Of a stretch of DNA of 40,778 nucleotides, positions 1 to 40,182 are shown in pieces. The first letter of the stretch is position 1, and every line of letters begins with the position of its first letter. Source of the DNA: a phage. The notes beneath the pieces were generated by a model. That model was not told where the DNA came from, ran no database searches, and worked only from the letters and a program-made list of their open reading frames with translations. The stretch is from the sequence record PZ179885.1. One strand, 5' to 3'. The position numbers were made by a program, and so were the translations under genes.

Positions 1-1767
1 ATGTCTAAGAAAACACCTGTTGAAAGACAGGCAGAAATGACCCAAAGGATGAGGGATGACTTCGTGTTCTTCATCTTCGTTCTATGGAAAGCTCTGAGCC
101 TTCCTGTTCCAACACGCTGCCAGATAGATATGTGTAAGAAGCTGGCGGCTGGAGATAATCGACGCTTCATCCTTCAAGCATTCCGTGGTATTGGAAAGTC
201 GTTCCTGACCTGTGGTTTCGTGGTCTGGAAGCTATGGAACAACCCGGACTTGAAGTTCATGATTGTGTCGGCCTCAAAGGAGCGAGCCGATGCTAACTCC
301 ATCTTCATCAAGCGAATCATCGACCTCATGCCTCAGCTTAAGGAACTCAAACCTAAGCAGGGGCAGCGAGATGCGGTTATCAGCTTCGACGTTGGACCAG
401 CCAAGCCAGACCACTCACCTTCGGTTAAGTCCGTTGGTATCACTGGTCAGTTGACTGGTAGTCGTGCTGACATCCTGATTGCCGATGACGTAGAGGTTCC
501 GAACAACTCAGCGACTCAGTCTGCACGAGACCGTCTGTCAGAGCTTGTGAAAGAGTTCGATGCTATCCTGAAGCCGGGAGGTACAATCATCTATCTGGGT
601 ACTCCTCAGAACGAGATGACCTTGTATCGTGAGCTGGAAGGCCGTGGATACACCACTACCATCTGGCCTGCTCGTTATCCACGCGACAGGAAGGACTGGC
701 AGTCTTACGGCGACCGTCTGGCACCGATGCTTCAGGCAGAGCTGGAAGAGGACCCTGAGTCCTTCTACTGGCGTCCGACCGATGAAGTACGATTTGATGA
801 TACGGACCTGAAGGAACGTGAGCTGTCCTATGGTAAAGCTGGCTTCGCTCTACAGTTCATGCTTAACCCTAACCTGAGTGATGCTGAGAAGTACCCTCTG
901 AAGCTCCGTGACCTTATCGTAGCCGACTTGGACCCAGCGTCTAGCCCAATGGTATACCAATGGCTTCCTAACCCTCAGAACAAGCGTGAGGACGTTCCTA
1001 ACGTTGGACTCATGGGTGACTCATACCACACGTATCAGACTGTAGGTTCTGCCTTCAGTTCGTACACCCAGAAGATTCTGGTCATTGACCCTAGTGGTCG
1101 TGGTAAGGATGAAACTGGTTATGCGGTACTGTACCAGCTAAACGGCTACATCTTCGCTATGGAAGTTGGCGGTATGCGAGGTGGCTATGAAGACTCTACG
1201 CTGGAAGCCTTGGCTAAGATTGGTCGTAAGTGGAAGGTCAACGAATACGTCATTGAGGGTAACTTCGGTGATGGTATGTACCTTGAGCTATTCAAGCCTG
1301 TAGCTTCCCGTATTCATCCTGCTGCTGTAACTGAAGTGAAGAGTAAGGGTCAGAAGGAACTCCGCATCTGTGACGTTCTGGAGCCTATCATGGGGTCTCA
1401 CCGACTTATCGTTAACGCTGCTGCTATCGTCCAAGATTACCAGTCTGCCTCTGATAAGGATGGTGTTCGTAATCCTATCTACTCTCTCTTCTACCAGATG
1501 ACACGTATCTCTCGTGAACGTGGAGCATTGGCACACGATGACCGACTTGATGCGCTGGCTATCGGTGTACAGTTCTTCGTTGAGTCTATGGCGAAGGATG
1601 CCAACAAAGGCGAACGTGAAGTCACTGAGGAGTGGCTGGAAGAACAGATGGAGAACCCACGGAAAGGCTTTGAGTCCATCCACACTGAGTTCTGGGACAA
1701 TGGGGTCCGGGTAACTCACGATACGGACGACGAGCTGGGGCTAGGGTCCTACGTTACGTTCCACTAG
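1..1767 (+). CDS. 19: terminase large subunit (T7 gp19-like)
   Basis: 588 aa ORF; conserved blocks [60 protein letters not shown] and [12 protein letters not shown] match my recollection of T7 gp19; RBS GGAGGG lies at the window's 3' end. Confidence 0.97.
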
Positions 1768-1861
1768 CTGAATGAATAACTATGGGTGAAAGCTGCATGA
1801 ATACGCAGTTAGTAACCTATAGTTACTACCAGTCTAACCTACTGTTTTATAAGGAGTTTGG

Positions 1862-1884
1862 ACTTAACTATCACTATAGGGAAG
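1862..1884 (+). promoter_or_regulatory. phage RNAP promoter downstream of gene 19 (phiOR-like), +1 G at 1879
   Basis: ACTTAACTATCACTATAGGGAAG matches the 11-copy promoter family in this window; same position as T7 phiOR. Confidence 0.8.
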
Positions 1885-2063
1885 ACCCCCGGTTACTTAT
1901 AGTATTACTGTAGTGAATATACATATGCAGACTTTATGCAAGACCTTAGGAGGCAGACTCCGAGTTCTTACCTAAGGCTTGCACCGATGGAAGGAGGGTG
2001 ATATTAATCATAATCCCTCCAATACAGATAGTAAAGACCATAGATACAGGAGGTATGTAGCAT

Positions 2064-2222
2064 ATGGCAAAGACCAAAGCTGTACTTAAAGCTCTGGCGA
2101 CCAATCGAGCTACATACAGGTTTCTTGCTGCTGTTCTACTTGCTGCTGGCGTTACTGCTGGAAGTAAGTGGGTCGGGTGGGTCGAGACTCTCGTATGTTC
2201 TCTGGTGTCTCAGTGTAATTAA
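2064..2222 (+). CDS. small hydrophobic protein at the gene 19.5 position
   Basis: 52 aa ORF (MAKTKAVLKALATNRATYRFLAAVLLAAGVTAGSKWVGWVETLVCSLVSQCN) with AGGAGG 8 nt upstream; below the ORF-track size cutoff; assignment is positional. Confidence 0.4.
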   Translation: MAKTKAVLKALATNRATYRFLAAVLLAAGVTAGSKWVGWVETLVCSLVSQCN

Positions 2223-2383
2223 CGCAATCATGGTAACGATTCATGAGCGGAAGACCTAAGGTCAGTACGTGGATAAAGACTCACTCTACTGACCTTAGCT
2301 ACTGTAGTCAAGGACTTTAGGTAACACCTTAATAGAAGCTCACCTAGGGTCATCCTACTTATTGGTCTATCCTAGTGTCGCCT

Positions 2384-2425
2384 GACCTACGGTCCTTGAC
2401 CTACAGTAGCTGCCACCTACGGTCA
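2384..2425. repeat. short array of CCTAC(A/G)G heptamers (right-side array, SRR-like)
   Basis: Three CCTACGG/CCTACAG copies at 2386, 2400 and 2416; T7 flanks its terminal repeat with heptamer arrays. Confidence 0.45.
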
Positions 2426-2460
2426 CTCGATGAGTTTTGGACCAAAAGTTTGAGACCACA

Positions 2461-2680
2461 TCTCACAGTTCAAGAACCTCAAGTCTCCCCATAGGCCCTC
2501 TTTCAGTCCAGACCAAAGGCCCTACCCGTTACTGCTCCTTGCAGTCACAGCCAGTCTATCATAAGGTTGGACCGATGGTCAAGACGTTAGGTCAACGATA
2601 GGTCTAGGCTATGGCTGGAGGTCAGGACAATAGGTAGGGACTATGGGTCTGTCTCTGAGTCTCTATCTGTATAACCATAG
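2461..2680. repeat. probable direct terminal repeat and genome end (concatemer junction), collapsed to one copy
   Basis: TCTCACAGTTCAAGAACCTCAAG at 2461 resembles the left-end sequences I recall for T7 (TCTCACAGTG...) and T3; it lies between the two heptamer arrays. The right boundary is approximate. Confidence 0.5.
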
Positions 2681-2681
2681 G

Positions 2682-2830
2682 TCCTACAACCTACAGTCCT
2701 ACAACCTACAGTCCTACAACCTACAGTCCTACAACCTACAGTCCTACAACCTACAGTCCTACACCTACAGTCTCACTAACCTACAGTAACAACCATAAGA
2801 CACTCACATCCTACAGTCATAGACCTACAG
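2682..2830. repeat. tandem array of TCCTACAACCTACAG (15 bp x5, then degenerate units), SRL-like
   Basis: Five perfect 15-bp units at 2682-2756 followed by degenerate units, each ending in CCTACAG; non-coding. Confidence 0.9.
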
Positions 2831-2848
2831 TTAATAGACACAAAGCTA

Positions 2849-2877
2849 TAGACTTAAAGTCTTAAACATGTTAGTCA
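2849..2877 (+). promoter_or_regulatory. candidate host sigma70 early promoter (A1-like), weak match
   Basis: TAGACT-17 bp-TAGTCA; contains GACTTAAAGTCT, which also occurs in the T7 A1 promoter; poor -10. Confidence 0.25.
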
Positions 2878-2942
2878 AAGACTATATCCTATTACACCAT
2901 GGGGCCGACGATAGCTTAATCAATATTATTTAAGATTACCTA

Positions 2943-2971
2943 TTGACTACAGGTCCAGACTATGGCTTAAT
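2943..2971 (+). promoter_or_regulatory. candidate host sigma70 early promoter (A2-like)
   Basis: TTGACT-17 bp-CTTAAT; good -35, weak -10. Confidence 0.3.
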
Positions 2972-3084
2972 AGCTTCCGTCAACACGACACGGCAACAAC
3001 CGGATAGTGAAGACGCCGGGGTCATCCCGGTTAAGTAGACAGCCTGATAAGTCATACGAACAACAGGCAGATGACAGAAAGTAG

Positions 3085-3114
3085 TTGACAAGATGTACCG
3101 ACTTAAAGTAGTAT
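3085..3114 (+). promoter_or_regulatory. host sigma70 early promoter (A3-like)
   Basis: TTGACA-18 bp-TAGTAT followed by GTACCACATCAACACGAAACAACGGTGA, closely resembling the T7 A3 promoter and its initial transcribed region as I recall them. Confidence 0.65.
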
Positions 3115-3231
3115 GTACCACATCAACACGAAACAACGGTGACGACCAACACTGAAATGGTCTACCTGAAGTCCTCTGACTGAAGGGAATGCTCTTTAAC
3201 AATCTGGATAAACTCTTAATGTGCGCCGATA

Positions 3232-3290
3232 GCGACTAACTACAGGGTCTTTGAGTCTACATCTGAAGGCCCTGACTGATAGTCACTAAC
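3232..3290 (+). promoter_or_regulatory. conserved early-region element, putative RNase III site (R0.3-like)
   Basis: Shares about 50 bp with the element at 3892-3943, including the exact 20-mer CCTGACTGATAGTCACTAAC (3271-3290); sits just upstream of gene 0.3. Confidence 0.4.
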
Positions 3291-3308
3291 AACTGAGAGG
3301 ATATAACT

Positions 3309-3812
3309 ATGGAACGTAACGCTAACGCATACTATGAGCTGCTGGCTGCAACCGTTGAGGCATTTATCGAGCGTATTCAGTACTACCACCTGACTAAAGA
3401 TGATGACTACAGCGATGCGCTGCATGAGGCCGTAGACGGTCAGGTTCCGCACTATTACCACGAGATTTTTACGGTGATGGCTGCTGATGGTATAGACCAC
3501 GAGTTCGAAGACTCTGGGCTGATGCCTGAAACCAAGGACGTAACGCGTATCCTACAAGCTCGCATCTATGAGGCACTTTATAACGACGTGTCTAATAGCT
3601 TGGATGTAGTCTGGTTTGAGGATGAAGAGGCAGACGAAGAGGATGAATATTGGGTAGTTGACGCTAAAACAGGCGCAATAATTGTGCAAGCTGTAGCTCT
3701 TGAGGTCGCTACTGCATGTGCCAAGCTCAACTATACGATAGGTCGCCACCTGAAGGTGGAAGACATCAATGATAACGTAGTGTTCGACCCTGCGGCTGAG
3801 GACTGCGAGTGA
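3309..3812 (+). CDS. 0.3: Ocr-like DNA-mimic anti-restriction protein (gene 0.3) with C-terminal extension
   Basis: Residues 1-115 align with T7 Ocr ([43 protein letters not shown] versus T7 [43 protein letters not shown]); acidic tail, then about 50 extra residues. Confidence 0.85.
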
Positions 3813-5328: not shown

Positions 5329-5351
5329 ACTTAACTATCACTATAGGACTC
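5329..5351 (+). promoter_or_regulatory. phage RNAP promoter immediately upstream of gene 1, +1 G at 5346
   Basis: ACTTAACTATCACTATAGGACTC; matches the family consensus at all positions I compared. Confidence 0.75.
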
Positions 5352-5420: not shown

Positions 5421-8102
5421 ATGAGCGTCATCTCTATTGACAAACACGACTTCTCTGATGTGTCGAACGCCATTGAGCCGTTTAACCTGCTGGCTGACCA
5501 CTACGGGCAAGACCTTGCAGTCAAACAGCTTCAGCTTGAGCATGAGGCATACACAGAAGGCGAGCGACGTTTCATCAAGAACCTTGAGCGCCAGACTGAG
5601 CGCGGGGAATTGGCAGACAATCAGGTCGCCAAGCCTTTGATGCAGACTCTGGTCCCTAAGATTGCGCAAGCCGTCAGGGAGTGGCACGAAGGCCTAGACG
5701 GGAAGCTGTCAACCTCGCGTCCTAGCGTAGCGTTCACCATGTTGAGCACTGAAGAGAAGGCCGTAAAGGACCGCTCTATGCGCATCTCTTGCGAGTCTGC
5801 TGCGGTCATCATACTGAAGGTCATCCTCTCCAAGCTGGTCAAGCCTGAAGGGATACCGATTACACCGATGGCATCCGCGATAGGCCGCACACTTGAGGAC
5901 GAAATCCGCTTCGGTCGCATCCGTGACAAAGAGAAGGAGCACTTCAAGAAGGCGATAGCTGAGAACCTGAACAAGCGAGCTGGGGCATCCTACAAGAAAG
6001 CCTACATGCAAGCGGTCGAGGCGTCCATGCTGGAGCAAGGCCAACTGGAAGATGCATGGGGGACTTGGAGTCCTACAGAGGCTGTCCACGTTGGCATCAA
6101 GATGCTCGAGATTGTCATCCAGTCAACACAACTGGTCGAGCTTAAGCGGTACGGTGCTGGTAATGCAGCGGCTGACGTAGAGATGGTCCACCTGTCAGAC
6201 TTCTGGGTCAAGAAGATGGCACAACGAGGATTCAGCCTTGCGGGTATCGCTCCAGTCTACCAGCCTTGCGTCGTTCCACCTAAGCAGTGGACTGGTGTTG
6301 TAGGTGGTGGGTACTGGGCCAAAGGTCGCAGACCATTACCACTGATTCGCTTAGGGTCTAAGTCTGCGGTGGCACGTTACGAAGACGTGTACATGCCTGA
6401 AGTCTATGACGCTGTGAACATCATTCAGAATACACCTTGGAAAGTGAACAAGAAGGTGCTGGACGTGGTGAACATGGTCGAGAAGCTGAACAACACGCCT
6501 ATTGACGACATCCCTCAGATGGAACCACTGAAGCCTGAGGACTATGCAGGTGAGACTGAGGAGGAACTCAAGGCATGGAAGAAGGCTGCTGCTGGTATCT
6601 ATCGACGCGAGAAGGCCCGACAGTCGCGCAGATTGTCACTGAGCTTTATCGTTAACCAAGCGAACAAGTTCTCTCAGTTCAAGGCCATCTGGTTCCCGTA
6701 CAACATGGATTGGCGAGGGCGTGTCTACGCTGTCCCGATGTTCAACCCTCAGGGTAACGACATGCAGAAGGGCCTCCTGACTCTGGCAGTCGGCAAGCCT
6801 ATTGGTGCTGACGGTTTCAAATGGCTGAAGGTCCACGGTGCAAACTGTGCGGGTGTCGATAAAGTCACCTTCGAGGAGCGTATCAAGTGGGTGGAAGACA
6901 ACCACGAAAACATCATGGCTGCTGCTAAGGCACCGATGGATAGTATTGAGTGGTGGGGCAAGTTAGACTCTCCGTTCTGTTTCCTCGCGTTCTGCTTCGA
7001 GTATGCTGGCGTAATGCACCACGGCCTGTCTTACTCCTGCTCGCTGCCGATAGCGTTCGATGGGTCCTGCTCTGGTATTCAGCACTTCAGTGCGATGCTT
7101 CGTGACCACATCGGTGGACATGCAGTAAACCTGACGCCTTCCGGTAAGGTCCAAGACATCTACCGCATCGTGTCTGACCGCATTGAGGAGGAGCTTAAAG
7201 TCCTGCTGATTAACGGTACTGACAACGAGATGGTCACTCACGAGGATAAGAAAACTGGTGAGATTACCGAACGTATCAAGCTGGGGACACGAGAGCTGGC
7301 CCGTCAGTGGCTGCAATTCGGTATGTCTCGCTCGGTCACTAAGCGCTCGGTCATGACTCTGGCCTACGGGTCGAAAGAGTATGGGTTCGCCGACCAAGTG
7401 TTCGAAGACACCGTGATGCCAGCGATTGACTCAGGGTCTGGCGCTATGTTCACTGAACCAAGCCAAGCGTCTCGCTTCATGGCAAAGATGATTTGGGAAG
7501 CTGTGAGTGTGACAGTAGTTGCTGCGGTTGACGCGATGAAGTGGCTTCAAGGCGCTGCCAAGTTGCTGGCTGCTGAAGTGAAGGACAAGAAGACTGGTGA
7601 AATCCTGAAGCCATGCCTTCCGGTACACTGGGTCACACCTGATGGGTTCCCGGTCTGGCAGGAATACCGCAAGAAGGATACCACTCGTCTGAACCTGATG
7701 TTCTTAGGGTCATTCAATCTTCAGCCTACCGTCAACAAAGGTACGAAGAAAGAGCTGGACAAGCACAAGCAGGAGTCAGGCATTAGCCCTAACTTCGTCC
7801 ACTCACAAGATGGTAGCCACCTGCGGAAGACTGTAGTCCACACTCACCGAAAGTATGGCGTGATGTCATTCGCAGTGATTCACGATAGCTTCGGGACCAT
7901 CCCGGCTGACGCTGAGTATCTGTTCCGTGGCGTCCGTGAGACGATGGTAGAGACATACCGCGATAACGATGTGCTGCTTGACTTCTACGAGCAGTTTGAA
8001 TACCAGCTTCATGAAAGTCAGCGCGACAAGTTGCCTGAGCTTCCGAAGAAAGGTAAACTGAATATCGAAGACATCTTGTCTTCAGACTTTGCATTCGCTT
8101 AA
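5421..8102 (+). CDS. 1: single-subunit DNA-directed RNA polymerase (T7 gp1-like)
   Basis: 893 aa; long collinear identity with T7/T3 RNAP, including FPYNMDWRGRVYAVPMFNPQGNDM, SPFCFLAFCFEYAG, RSVTKRSVMTLAYGSKE, HDSFGT and the C-terminal SDFAFA. Confidence 0.99.
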   Translation: MSVISIDKHDFSDVSNAIEPFNLLADHYGQDLAVKQLQLEHEAYTEGERRFIKNLERQTERGELADNQVAKPLMQTLVPKIAQAVREWHEGLDGKLSTSRPSVAFTMLSTEEKAVKDRSMRISCESAAVIILKVILSKLVKPEGIPITPMASAIGRTLEDEIRFGRIRDKEKEHFKKAIAENLNKRAGASYKKAYMQAVEASMLEQGQLEDAWGTWSPTEAVHVGIKMLEIVIQSTQLVELKRYGAGNAAADVEMVHLSDFWVKKMAQRGFSLAGIAPVYQPCVVPPKQWTGVVGGGYWAKGRRPLPLIRLGSKSAVARYEDVYMPEVYDAVNIIQNTPWKVNKKVLDVVNMVEKLNNTPIDDIPQMEPLKPEDYAGETEEELKAWKKAAAGIYRREKARQSRRLSLSFIVNQANKFSQFKAIWFPYNMDWRGRVYAVPMFNPQGNDMQKGLLTLAVGKPIGADGFKWLKVHGANCAGVDKVTFEERIKWVEDNHENIMAAAKAPMDSIEWWGKLDSPFCFLAFCFEYAGVMHHGLSYSCSLPIAFDGSCSGIQHFSAMLRDHIGGHAVNLTPSGKVQDIYRIVSDRIEEELKVLLINGTDNEMVTHEDKKTGEITERIKLGTRELARQWLQFGMSRSVTKRSVMTLAYGSKEYGFADQVFEDTVMPAIDSGSGAMFTEPSQASRFMAKMIWEAVSVTVVAAVDAMKWLQGAAKLLAAEVKDKKTGEILKPCLPVHWVTPDGFPVWQEYRKKDTTRLNLMFLGSFNLQPTVNKGTKKELDKHKQESGISPNFVHSQDGSHLRKTVVHTHRKYGVMSFAVIHDSFGTIPADAEYLFRGVRETMVETYRDNDVLLDFYEQFEYQLHESQRDKLPELPKKGKLNIEDILSSDFAFA

Positions 8103-11853: not shown

Positions 11854-12552
11854 ATGGCTAAAGAGCAACTGAAGACTTTCACCACTCCGGTAGCTGGTAT
11901 CGTTGAGCCTTACGCATGGCTGAACAAAGCAGACACTAAGTTTAACGAGCGTGGTGAGCATAAGGTTAACCTGACATTCGACCTGAGCAGCCCGAAGGTC
12001 CGTAAGATGATTGATGTCTTACAGAAGATTCACGACGATGCGTATGCGAAAGCACTTGCAGACCACGAGAAGAACCCACCTCAGGTTCAGCGTGGCAAGA
12101 AGCCTATTGAACCACGAGAAGGCGACATGCCGTGGATTGAGAATGGTGACGGTACTGTTACCATGAAGTTTAAATGCTTCGCGTCTTACCTGAAGGATGG
12201 TAAGTCAGAGCCTATCGTATTACGGTTCTACGACACCGATGCTAAGTTAATCCGTGACGTCCCGAATATTGGCGCTGGCTCCAAACTGAAGGTCAAGTTT
12301 AAAGTCCTTCCGTTCAAGTGGAACGCTGCGACTGGTGCAAGCGTTAAGCTCCAGCTTGAGTCCTGCCTTCTGGTAGAACTGAAGGAGTGGAAAGGCGATG
12401 GTGCTGGTGGCGATGGTGGCTGGGGTGATGATGAAGACCTCGGTACTGGCTACAAAGCGTCAACCGATGGTGACTTCGGGTCTGACGACTTCAGTGACGA
12501 TGGTTGTGATGGCGATGACGACTCCAACTCTGGTGGCGATTACGACTTCTAA
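11854..12552 (+). CDS. 2.5: single-stranded DNA-binding protein (gene 2.5)
   Basis: 232 aa, the same length as T7 gp2.5; acidic C-terminus ending in DF. Confidence 0.93.
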   Translation: MAKEQLKTFTTPVAGIVEPYAWLNKADTKFNERGEHKVNLTFDLSSPKVRKMIDVLQKIHDDAYAKALADHEKNPPQVQRGKKPIEPREGDMPWIENGDGTVTMKFKCFASYLKDGKSEPIVLRFYDTDAKLIRDVPNIGAGSKLKVKFKVLPFKWNAATGASVKLQLESCLLVELKEWKGDGAGGDGGWGDDEDLGTGYKASTDGDFGSDDFSDDGCDGDDDSNSGGDYDF

Positions 12553-13004
12553 TGGCCCAATGGTCTGCAAAACGGGGGCACTCTGTGGGTGCCTACCGCT
12601 CTGGACTTGAAGCCAAGAACCAGCAGTGGCTGGAACAGAACGGCGTCAAAGCGGAGTACGAAAGCCATTATATCAACTATGTGATTCCGGCTTCCGACCA
12701 CAAGTACACACCAGACTTTATCCTTCCTAACGGTATCATCGTGGAGACCAAAGGTATCTTCGATAGTGATGACCGTAAGAAGCACCTTCTGGTACGAGAA
12801 CAGCACCCAGAGTTAGACATTCGGTTCGTGTTCTCAAGTTCCCGCTCCAAGTTATACAAAGGGTCTCCGACCACGTATGGCGCATGGTGCGAAAAGAACG
12901 GCTATAAGTATGCCGATAAGTTCATCCCGGTTGAGTGGCTTCGAGAGGCGACTGTACGTCTGCCTTCAGGTATCCTCATCCCCAAGAAGAAAGGAGTTAA
13001 GTGA
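12552..13004 (+). CDS. 3: endonuclease I, Holliday-junction resolvase (gene 3)
   Basis: 150 aa; YTPDFILPNGIIVETKG and DDRKKHLLVREQHPELDIRFVFSSSRSKLYKGSPTTYG match T7 gp3. Confidence 0.96.
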   Translation: MAQWSAKRGHSVGAYRSGLEAKNQQWLEQNGVKAEYESHYINYVIPASDHKYTPDFILPNGIIVETKGIFDSDDRKKHLLVREQHPELDIRFVFSSSRSKLYKGSPTTYGAWCEKNGYKYADKFIPVEWLREATVRLPSGILIPKKKGVK

Positions 13005-37469: not shown

Positions 37470-39653
37470 ATGTCCACGATTACACAATTCCCTTCAGGAA
37501 ACACTCAGTACAGGATTGAGTTCGACTACCTAGCCAGAACTTTTGTTGTTGTTACGCTGGTGAATAGCTCTAACCCTACCATGAACCGTGTACTGGAAGT
37601 TGGTCTAGATTACAGATTCCTTAATCCAACGATGATTGAGATGTTGGTTGACCAATCAGGTTTCGACATCGTTCGTATTCACCGTCAGACTGGAACTGAC
37701 TTAGTGGTAGACTTCAGGAATGGCTCAGTGTTGACAGCTAGTGACCTGACCAATGCAGAGCTTCAGGCTATCCATATTGCAGAAGAAGGTCGAGACCAAA
37801 CGGTTGACTTAGCGAAGGAATATGCCGATGCTGCTGGTAGCTCTGCTGGCAACGCTAAGGATAGCGAGGACGAAGCACGACGAATCGCTGCGAGTATCAA
37901 GGCAGCTGGTAAAATTGGCTATATTACCAGTCGCTCCTTCGAGAAAGGCTTCAACGTTACAAAATGGAACGAGGCCCTACTATGGGAAGAGGATGGTGAT
38001 TATTACCGCTGGGATGGTACGCTTCCAAAGAACGTTCCTGCTGGTTCAACTCCTGAATCATCTGGTGGTATTGGGCTGGGTGCATGGGTTAGTGTCGGTG
38101 ATGCGTCACTTAGAGCAAACCTGTCTGATAGTGATGGCGCTAAAAACATAGGCAGTGGGAAAAGAAATTTGCTTGACAGAAATAATGATATTAAGCACTC
38201 TGGTGACTTCTCTACCTTGCAAGCCGCGATAGATGCATCGTTAGCTAAGAACGACTTAATTGTTTCTCCGGGTGAGTACTCAGAGTCGATTACTATTGGA
38301 AACGCGCAGTTAAAAGGTGTTGGCGGGGCTGTAGTACTAAAACCACCAACAGGCTTTACAAACACTGTTCAGGTCAATTTATCTACACCTCATTGGCAAT
38401 TCCGCCATAGTGGTGGTTTTGCTATAGATGGTTCTGGGACAACCGGGGGCGTAGGCATTAGTTTTGACCCGTCAGACCAATATTCTGGCCGACATAATTT
38501 TAGTGATTTATACATCCACAACATCAACAAGGCCATTCAGAAGCCTTCCGGGAACATCGGTAATACATGGAGACATATTGGGGTATCTACGTGTGATTGG
38601 GGGTATTATGCGGTTAGTGGCTCAGAGATGCATTGTGGTGCCGATACACTCTACAATTTTCACTTCGACGGCATCTCCACCTATGCAGTCTACCTAAACG
38701 GCACTGTCGATAACGGTGGGGTGGGCGCATGGTGGCTTAAAGACTCCATTATTGAGTCCTCCGGCGGCGGCGGGATATACTTAAAAAACAAGCCTGGAGA
38801 CTGTCCTACATCCCCATGCGGGGTATCCAATGTATGGATGGAAGCGATCGCAACATCACCGGCTGTTAATGTAGACGGTGTGGCGCAGAAACCACGAGTT
38901 CTCAAGTTGGTAGACACCGCGATATTCTTTGCTGAGTATTCTTATCTCAACAACATCGAGCTGTCCAACTCAAACTTAGTAACTTATGGTTGCCGTTTTG
39001 ACAACGCTGATGGTAATCAGGATATTGTCGTGGATGCACAAAGTACCATTGTAGCCCATGACGTGTATTTAAACGGCAGTTCCGGAAAGGACGTTATTGT
39101 AGAGTCTATCGCATCGCAATCTGCAACGATAGCTACCACAAACTTATCTCTGCGAGGAAATTTAACTAGAGGGAGAGTGTTTAACACACCAACTGGTAAT
39201 AAATTGCAGGCTATTACGTTTGATTCCGGTAGCCACGAGTTTTCTGGTAGTGCTACAGTTAGCGGATCAATTGTATCTGACGGACTTCACGCCGCTACAT
39301 GTACCGAATTTTCATTCCCGGGGGCTGGTGTGTTCGAGATGGTAGCTTCAAGAACGACAATAACATCAGGAAGATGGTACGTGTGGGGTGTTAACTCACG
39401 CCTACAATCTGGCTTGGCGGACATTAGTATAACGTCTGGTATTACTATGGGTAGTGTTTACACAAAGCCCGGGGAGTGGATTAGCACTTTCGGTGTAGGC
39501 AAGGCATCTTCCACTGGCATTGTTTCGCTATACATTTCCACAGGAGGAGGTTCAGGAGCTACGGTCAGATTCAGTGACTTTTTCATCGCTGAGTTTACGA
39601 CGCAGGCTCAGGCTTTAGCTTTCGCCAATACCAGAATGGCACTGAGTAGTTAG
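37470..39653 (+). CDS. 17: tail fiber / tailspike (gene 17) with beta-helix C-terminal domain
   Basis: 727 aa; the first ~150 aa resemble the T7 gp17 N-terminal domain (FDYLARTFVVVTL, DYRF, LQAIHIAEEGRD); the remainder is Gly/Ser/Asn-rich with repetitive beta-strand character typical of right-handed beta-helix tailspikes. Confidence 0.93.
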   Translation: MSTITQFPSGNTQYRIEFDYLARTFVVVTLVNSSNPTMNRVLEVGLDYRFLNPTMIEMLVDQSGFDIVRIHRQTGTDLVVDFRNGSVLTASDLTNAELQAIHIAEEGRDQTVDLAKEYADAAGSSAGNAKDSEDEARRIAASIKAAGKIGYITSRSFEKGFNVTKWNEALLWEEDGDYYRWDGTLPKNVPAGSTPESSGGIGLGAWVSVGDASLRANLSDSDGAKNIGSGKRNLLDRNNDIKHSGDFSTLQAAIDASLAKNDLIVSPGEYSESITIGNAQLKGVGGAVVLKPPTGFTNTVQVNLSTPHWQFRHSGGFAIDGSGTTGGVGISFDPSDQYSGRHNFSDLYIHNINKAIQKPSGNIGNTWRHIGVSTCDWGYYAVSGSEMHCGADTLYNFHFDGISTYAVYLNGTVDNGGVGAWWLKDSIIESSGGGGIYLKNKPGDCPTSPCGVSNVWMEAIATSPAVNVDGVAQKPRVLKLVDTAIFFAEYSYLNNIELSNSNLVTYGCRFDNADGNQDIVVDAQSTIVAHDVYLNGSSGKDVIVESIASQSATIATTNLSLRGNLTRGRVFNTPTGNKLQAITFDSGSHEFSGSATVSGSIVSDGLHAATCTEFSFPGAGVFEMVASRTTITSGRWYVWGVNSRLQSGLADISITSGITMGSVYTKPGEWISTFGVGKASSTGIVSLYISTGGGSGATVRFSDFFIAEFTTQAQALAFANTRMALSS

Positions 39654-39727: not shown

Positions 39728-39922
39728 ATGATTGAGTTAGACTTCAAGAATGAGGTCCTTAAAGCCTCTCCTATCGTCGGGACCGCTGCGGCTGATGGTG
39801 CCAGTCGGTTCTTCTTCGGACTTACACTAAACGAATGGTTCTACGTTGCAGCTATCGCGTACACCGTTGTCCAGATTGGTGTGCTAGTCTACAAAACGAT
39901 TAAAGGAGGTGGTAAAACATGA
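39728..39922 (+). CDS. 17.5: holin (gene 17.5)
   Basis: 64 aa; LDFKNEVLKASPIVGT...FFGLTLNEWFYVAAIAYTVVQIG is nearly identical to T7 gp17.5. Confidence 0.9.
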   Translation: MIELDFKNEVLKASPIVGTAAADGASRFFFGLTLNEWFYVAAIAYTVVQIGVLVYKTIKGGGKT

Positions 39923-40182
39923 CGCAGATGGACTTAGAGAAGTTCCTCTTGATGCTAGATACTGAACGTGCTCGACTCATGCTGCAAGACTTGCGGGATG
40001 ACACTAAGCGTTCACCTCAGCTTTACAACGCCATTGAGAAGCTACTGGCTCGTCACAACTTTGTGTTAAGCAAGGTGTCTGTTGACGAGAAGACGCTTGC
40101 TGATATGGAGGCCCTGAACGCAGAGTACGATAAGGTGCTTTCAGCTACTGAGGATAATGACACCGGGTATGGTGTTCAATAA
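39919..40182 (+). CDS. 18: terminase small subunit (gene 18)
   Basis: 87 aa; LMLDTERARLMLQDL...RSPQLYNAIEKLLARH matches T7 gp18. Confidence 0.9.
   Translation: MTQMDLEKFLLMLDTERARLMLQDLRDDTKRSPQLYNAIEKLLARHNFVLSKVSVDEKTLADMEALNAEYDKVLSATEDNDTGYGVQ

Follow-up and report, generated by a model that had tools for sequence, protein, structure and literature searches.

The genome ends of phage SH5 and of the Citrobacter phages SH3 and SH4 were located by run-off Sanger sequencing performed directly on virion DNA, and the same paper quotes a published length of 179 bp for the terminal repeat of coliphage K1F (PMC4925675). Five deposited records carry an exact direct repeat at both ends, namely those of K1F (178 bp), SH3 (184 bp), SH4 (191 bp), Mt1B1_P3 (202 bp) and Milel (202 bp). 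In Kayfunavirus junctions, the repeat lengths cluster at about 179-184, 191 and 201-205 bp.

The repeats of T7 and T3 are 160 bp and 231 bp long, respectively. Across the joined ends of T7, the elements follow one another as phiOR, gene 19.5, an inverted repeat about 190 bp upstream, upstream heptamers, the repeat itself, a boundary directly before ATCTGT, downstream heptamers, early promoters and gene 0.3, and the same order was found in the locus described here. T7 carries 12 CCTAAAG-type heptamers at positions 175-332, one about every 13 bp; a further 5 copies lie in the 160 bp that precede the repeat. The sequence ATCTGTT has been described as a class II pause/termination signal at the T7 concatemer junction (bioRxiv 10.1101/2021.01.11.426313; 10.64898/2026.02.12.705533), and positions 142 and 162 have been reported as the only essential loci at the T7 genome ends (PMC11482910). 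Position 162 falls within ATCTGTT.

We analyzed a stretch of 40,778 nucleotides (record PZ179885.1), the whole of which is called the window below. It was found to encode a full T7-like gene set, all on the + strand. Its best relatives were vB_EcoP-R1 and IME177, with 95.6-95.8% identity over 94% coverage of 25 kb; both are classified in Kayfunavirus. No identical record was present in the phage collection searched, in which the closest showed about 96% identity. Judged by these comparisons, the phage is a K1F-like member of Kayfunavirus, a relative of T7, and its genome is complete. The genes referred to below are as follows.

1-1767, + strand: large terminase subunit, gene 19 homologue (PHROG terminase large subunit, E = 3e-130)
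2064-2222, + strand: gene 19.5 homologue of 52 aa, predicted to be the final gene ahead of the right genome end (phrog_2193, E = 2e-24)
3309-3812, + strand: ocr-like gene 0.3
5421-8102, + strand: single-subunit RNA polymerase
12552-13004, + strand: gene 3 endonuclease
39919-40182, + strand: small terminase subunit, gene 18 homologue (phrog_1351, E = 1e-34)

The PHROG matches thus include a terminase pair of the T7 type (gp18 and gp19), and the counterpart of the gene 19.5 homologue is annotated as gp19.5 in phage PE3-1. We propose, with a probability of about 0.9, that positions 2384-2830 are a concatemer junction of the T7 group (Studiervirinae) in which the two genome ends are joined through one 204-bp copy of the terminal repeat (TR). 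The functions given to the parts of this junction are all assigned by homology, mainly to T7 and T3.

The terminal repeat and its boundaries

The elements in and around the putative junction are listed below from left to right.

1867-1882, + strand: phiOR-type phage RNA polymerase promoter, an exact match to ACTATCACTATAGGGA
2256-2298, no strand: inverted repeat with perfect 12-nt arms (2256-2267 and 2287-2298) and a 19-nt loop; DNA fold -11.3 kcal/mol, z = -3.6
2386-2422, + strand: upstream (SRR-like) array of CCTACGG, CCTACAG and CCTACGG, starting at 2386, 2400 and 2416 (spacing 14 and 16 nt)
2431-2490, + strand: invariant 60-nt block across the left cut, which lies between 2460 and 2461 (conservation 1.00 in every 10-nt bin, 12 relatives)
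2461-2664, + strand: direct terminal repeat of 204 bp, present as a single copy in collapsed/concatemer form (end-to-end alignment with the repeats of K1F, SH3, SH4, Mt1B1_P3 and Milel)
2553-2582, - strand: leftward sigma-70 promoter-like site within the TR (TTGACC, 18 nt, TAGACT, with TG; consensus scan)
2665-2671, + strand: class II pause-like ATCTGTA directly after the TR (6/7 match to ATCTGTT)
2682-2756, + strand: core of the downstream (SRL-like) array, five perfect tandem 15-nt units TCCTACAACCTACAG starting at 2682, 2697, 2712, 2727 and 2742
2757-2830, + strand: degenerate part of the downstream array, a 14-nt and a 16-nt variant unit followed by CCTACAG at 2810 and 2824

An earlier sequence-only reading had noted that the sequence at 2461 resembles the left ends of T7 and T3, and had proposed a probable genome end at this position. 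The resemblance was confirmed: the 18-mer TCTCACAGTTCAAGAACC, which occurs once in the window (2461-2478, + strand), matched the start of the K1F record at 18/18 positions, that of T3 at 17/18 and that of T7 at 14/18, and T7 and the window share the repeat start TCTCACAG. The proposed end was also supported, as the sequence from 2461 onward corresponds to that from base 1 onward in seven related Kayfunavirus records (K1F, SH3, SH4, Mt1B1_P3, Milel, HC12 and phiYIO1-1), two of which have ends established by run-off sequencing. HC12 and phiYIO1-1 were recovered by a search with 2440-2700 as the query, which returned 229 phage records; both start at the base aligned to 2461.

We then compared the sequence context of this cut among relatives. 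The 30 nt on either side were identical in 13/13 Kayfunavirus junctions compared; K1F, SH3 and SH4 share the 30 nt before the cut with the window, and the first 43 nt of the K1F repeat are identical to it. The block 2431-2490 is likely to be the region that is recognized and cleaved.

The right boundary was placed by comparison with the deposited repeats, which stop directly before ATCTGT in SH4, Mt1B1_P3, Milel, T7 and T3. The published length of 179 bp puts the K1F boundary directly before ATCTGT as well. The window shows GAGTCTCT, then the boundary at 2664/2665, then ATCTGTAT, and K1F, SH3 and SH4 agree with it in having GAGTCYCT before the boundary and ATCTGTAT after it. Placing the boundary before ATCTGT gives a TR of 2461-2664, or 204 bp. 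The right boundaries in the database are not fully uniform: K1F is deposited 1 base too short and SH3 4 bases too long. The right end of the repeat is therefore best given as 2664 +/- about 4 bases. The repeat had been suggested to end at about 2680; this end has to be moved to 2664, about 18 bp before the downstream array. The segment around the right boundary, 2631-2670, had a conservation of 0.93-0.98 across the 13 Kayfunavirus junctions.

When 2384-2830 was compared with the window by self-BLAST, no second copy of the repeat was found, which bears out the suggestion that the repeat appears once in a collapsed assembly. Joining the two ends of the K1F record gave a junction with which the window could be aligned along its whole length. 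Relative to K1F, SH3 and SH4, the TR contains a 24-bp insertion at 2527-2550, and its greater length (204 bp, compared with 178/179, 184 and 191 bp) is mainly due to this insertion. The left half of the TR is C-rich (GC skew -0.45) and the right half G-rich (+0.44), and the T7 repeat, judged by eye, is divided into the same C-rich and G-rich halves. T3 agrees with the window in the 18-mer (17/18), in the boundary before ATCTGT and in an inverted repeat 184 bp upstream, whereas the interior of its repeat could not be aligned with that of the window at such a level.

Inverted repeat, heptamer arrays and transcription signals

The center of the inverted repeat lies 184 bp from the left cut in the window, 184 bp in K1F, which carries the same inverted repeat, 184 bp in T3 and 190 bp in T7 (nt 39588). 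In all four phages, the inverted repeat folded better than shuffled sequences (z between -2.8 and -4.3). Across the 13 Kayfunavirus junctions, the arms were invariant and the loop was variable; between the T7 and T3 hairpins, 15/15 pairs are kept, 4 of them through compensatory changes. The hairpin of the window is unrelated in sequence to that of T7, which has imperfect 19-nt arms and a 3-nt loop in contrast to the perfect 12-nt arms and 19-nt loop found here. By position, the inverted repeat of the window is the counterpart of those in T7 and T3. Chung, Nardone and Hinkle reportedly described, in 1990, a T7 hairpin intermediate at the inverted repeat, together with a model of repeat duplication through a hairpin.

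The sequence-only reading had further described a CCTACGG/CCTACAG array within 2384-2425, five perfect 15-bp units with degenerate copies over 2682-2830, and an organization mirroring the SRR-TR-SRL arrangement of T7. All of these were recovered: three heptamers start at 2386, 2400 and 2416, the five units and the degenerate copies are present downstream as described, and the order is that of T7, with heptamers on both sides of the repeat and on one strand. Tandem Repeats Finder reported a period of 15, 7.1 copies and 94% matches for 2681-2787. The CCTACAG copies are spaced by about 15 bp, and when CCTACAA half-units are counted the spacing alternates between 7 and 8 bp. The heptamer differs from that of T7 both in sequence (CCTACAG as opposed to CCTAAAG) and in spacing (about 15 nt as opposed to 13); the heptamers of T3 are CCTAAAG/CTTAAAG. 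In K1F, SH3 and SH4, as in the window, CCTACRG heptamers are present to either side of the repeat.

CCTACRG occurred 37 times in the whole window, compared with 10.0 +/- 3.2 in shuffled sequences, none of which reached 37. All the junction copies (12/12) are on the + strand, with three upstream of the TR and nine or more downstream. Taking the CCTACRG rate outside the junction as the Poisson background, three copies in 42 bp had a probability of about 4e-7, and nine in 141 bp were too improbable to compute. Outside 2384-2830, 25 copies were present on both strands, about 2.5-fold over the shuffles (in which about 10 are expected across the full window).

This strongly non-random, one-stranded distribution, and the presence of such arrays in T7, in T3 and in all Kayfunavirus phages examined, agree with an alternative in which the junction is correctly identified but the arrays are its functional core, serving as binding sites for terminase or another protein required for packaging or genome entry. 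Parts of the arrays are also well conserved. The upstream array keeps its position in most of the 13 relatives (conservation of the region 0.85-1.0), and the two distal downstream copies, at 2810 and 2824, reached 0.91-0.96. However, the tandem 15-mer core was the least conserved part of the region, with values of 0.15-0.6 across the 13 Kayfunavirus junctions, and its unit length and copy number shift among close relatives. The number of perfect 15-mers ranges from 0 to 5 among relatives, some of which have units of 14 or 16 nt in their place (16 nt in Zappy): K1F and SH3 have none, SH4 has one, and IME177, which is 96.8% identical in the junction region, has two perfect units as opposed to the five of the window. 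Since both unit type and copy number vary in this way, the core behaves as a slippage-prone variable tandem repeat, while the blocks at the cut sites look constrained.

A mutant clone of T7 also speaks against an array-centered junction. In MZ375294, gene 19.5 and the hairpin are missing, SRR is almost entirely lost and SRL is kept; about 59 bp to the left of the cut are retained, the terminal repeat has an 18-bp deletion, and CTCTGTT replaces ATCTGTT. A literature search by the accession numbers of T7 mutant clones found no paper on MZ375294, and one on SRL/SRR and CCTAAAG found nothing relevant. Gene 19.5, the hairpin and SRR may thus be dispensable, and the pause signal may tolerate change. 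Together with the dispensability reported for the T7 ends, the losses in this clone indicate that the arrays and the hairpin are probably accessory. We therefore consider it rather unlikely that the arrays are the functional core of the junction, and regard them as probably a family-typical accessory feature.

Transcription signals were next considered. Promoter-type sites of the form ACTATCACTATAGGGA were found 11 times in the window, all on the + strand, compared with 0.36 expected. The site at 1867-1882 corresponds in position to phiOR as recorded for T7 and T3 and is predicted to read rightward through gene 19.5 into the junction. After the downstream array, no phiOL-type promoter was detected, and between 1882 and 5334 there was no site with three or fewer mismatches; in this the window differs from T7 (phiOL at position 405) and T3 (366-388). 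phiOL is a feature of T7 and T3 and is not needed for a junction. The T3 record annotates a leftward A0 promoter within the repeat, and the sigma-70-like site at 2553-2582 could tentatively be taken as a possible counterpart of A0 of T7 and T3; the number of sigma-70-like sites in the region was not above that in shuffled sequences. An intrinsic-terminator scan found no terminator, and an Rfam scan of 1700-3400 with E values up to 1 gave no match.

For the class II signal, the criterion was a non-template strand that reads ATCTGTT after an A, C or T. The window has T followed by ATCTGTA, which departs from the signal in the last base; the same variant was found in all Kayfunavirus junctions compared, whereas T7 and T3 have ATCTGTT at this place. 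In the PE3-1 record, the homologous CTATCTGT is labelled 'concatemeric junction'. For T7 RNA polymerase, any base change has been reported to abolish class II termination (bioRxiv 10.1101/2021.01.11.426313). With its seventh base changed, ATCTGTA is regarded here as a putative pause signal. Genome-wide, ATCTGTW was not enriched (7 found, 11.8 expected), so any meaning of ATCTGTA rests on its position and conservation and not on its frequency.

A further reading would give both of these features a function. K1F-group phages might use ATCTGTA as a lineage-specific class II variant that is read by their own polymerase, and the fast-changing array next to it (2 to 5 or more units, each 14, 15 or 16 nt long) might modulate pausing, the processing of ends or the entry of the genome, in which case its variation would not be neutral slippage. 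We consider this reading quite unlikely.

Layout of the record and formation of the ends

The record opens with the ATG start codon of the large terminase, and its other end lies in the gene 18.5/18.7 region. Self-BLAST revealed no overlap between the ends of the window. The start at the terminase ATG, the absence of an end overlap and the single repeat indicate that the assembly had been circularized and then linearized at the terminase gene; the assembler would have merged the two TR copies before the circle was opened there. In the Kayfunavirus records of the phage collection, the junction is mostly internal, and in many of them CDSs named 'hypothetical protein' are drawn across it. Since most records have an internal junction, a collapsed and permuted layout is the database norm, and the present record would be a permuted, repeat-collapsed assembly like most others of the genus.

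The ends of this phage are placed by homology to relatives, and most of the related records are likewise permuted with an internal junction. It could thus be argued that the physical ends lie elsewhere, or that the phage packages by a headful mechanism, and that the likeness to the K1F ends is inherited sequence only. However, the cut-site context is invariant in 13 relatives, the five records with a repeat at both ends have exactly these boundaries, and a T7-type terminase pair is encoded. In light of this evidence, we regard ends at another position as very improbable. A coding role for the downstream array is scarcely credible and was rejected: an ATG-initiated ORF (2643-2789, 48 aa) does span the array and, with a 15-nt unit equal to 5 codons, would encode a repeated SYNLQ peptide, but it crosses the repeat boundary, its ATG is ATT in K1F, SH3 and SH4, and, in relatives, units of 14 or 16 nt and changes in copy number break the frame.

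Under the preferred reading of 2384-2830 as a T7-type concatemer junction, the right genome end would comprise phiOR, gene 19.5, the hairpin repeat and the upstream array, leading into the TR, and the left genome end would continue after the TR with the downstream array, the early promoters and gene 0.3. By analogy with T7 and T3, replication would produce head-to-tail concatemers with one repeat per junction. Phage RNA polymerase starting from phiOR would then cross the junction and pause at the class II-type signal to the right of the TR. In the accounts of Zhang and Studier and of Lyakhov et al., lysozyme-dependent pausing of RNA polymerase is said to be required for concatemer processing. 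The procapsid-bound gp18/gp19 terminase, of which the large subunit (1-1767) is the enzyme expected to cut the junction, would cleave before 2461 and after 2664. DNA synthesis would duplicate the repeat, perhaps with priming by way of the hairpin repeat, which lies about 184 bp upstream, so that both neighboring genomes retain one copy.

The resulting virion would have the TR at both ends of a genome of about 40,982 bp. We infer from this a true linear map with its left end at 2461 and a 204-bp repeat, which would be useful for correct deposition, for synthetic rebooting or engineering, and for the reading of coverage. The junction is one further example of an architecture known since the T7 sequence, and placing it correctly adds no new biology. 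The comparison does separate the invariant parts, that is, the blocks at the two cut sites and the arms of the hairpin, from the freely varying downstream tandem array.

Two minor observations were made outside the junction. A promoter-like site, ACTATCACTATAGGAC, is present at 5334-5349 (+ strand) with 2 mismatches to the consensus, about 70 nt before the RNA polymerase gene (5421), and could let the polymerase transcribe its own gene, as suggested by its position. The T7 and T3 records annotate no phage promoter at the corresponding place within their first 1000 bases, and neither phage is known to have one before gene 1. In phiYIO1-1, a 543-bp HNH endonuclease gene (78-620 of the extracted locus) separates the large terminase gene from gene 19.5, and a 543-bp CDS without a name occupies this position in Zappy and SR04 (1-184 of the extracted loci); the window has just a 296-nt spacer there (1768-2063).
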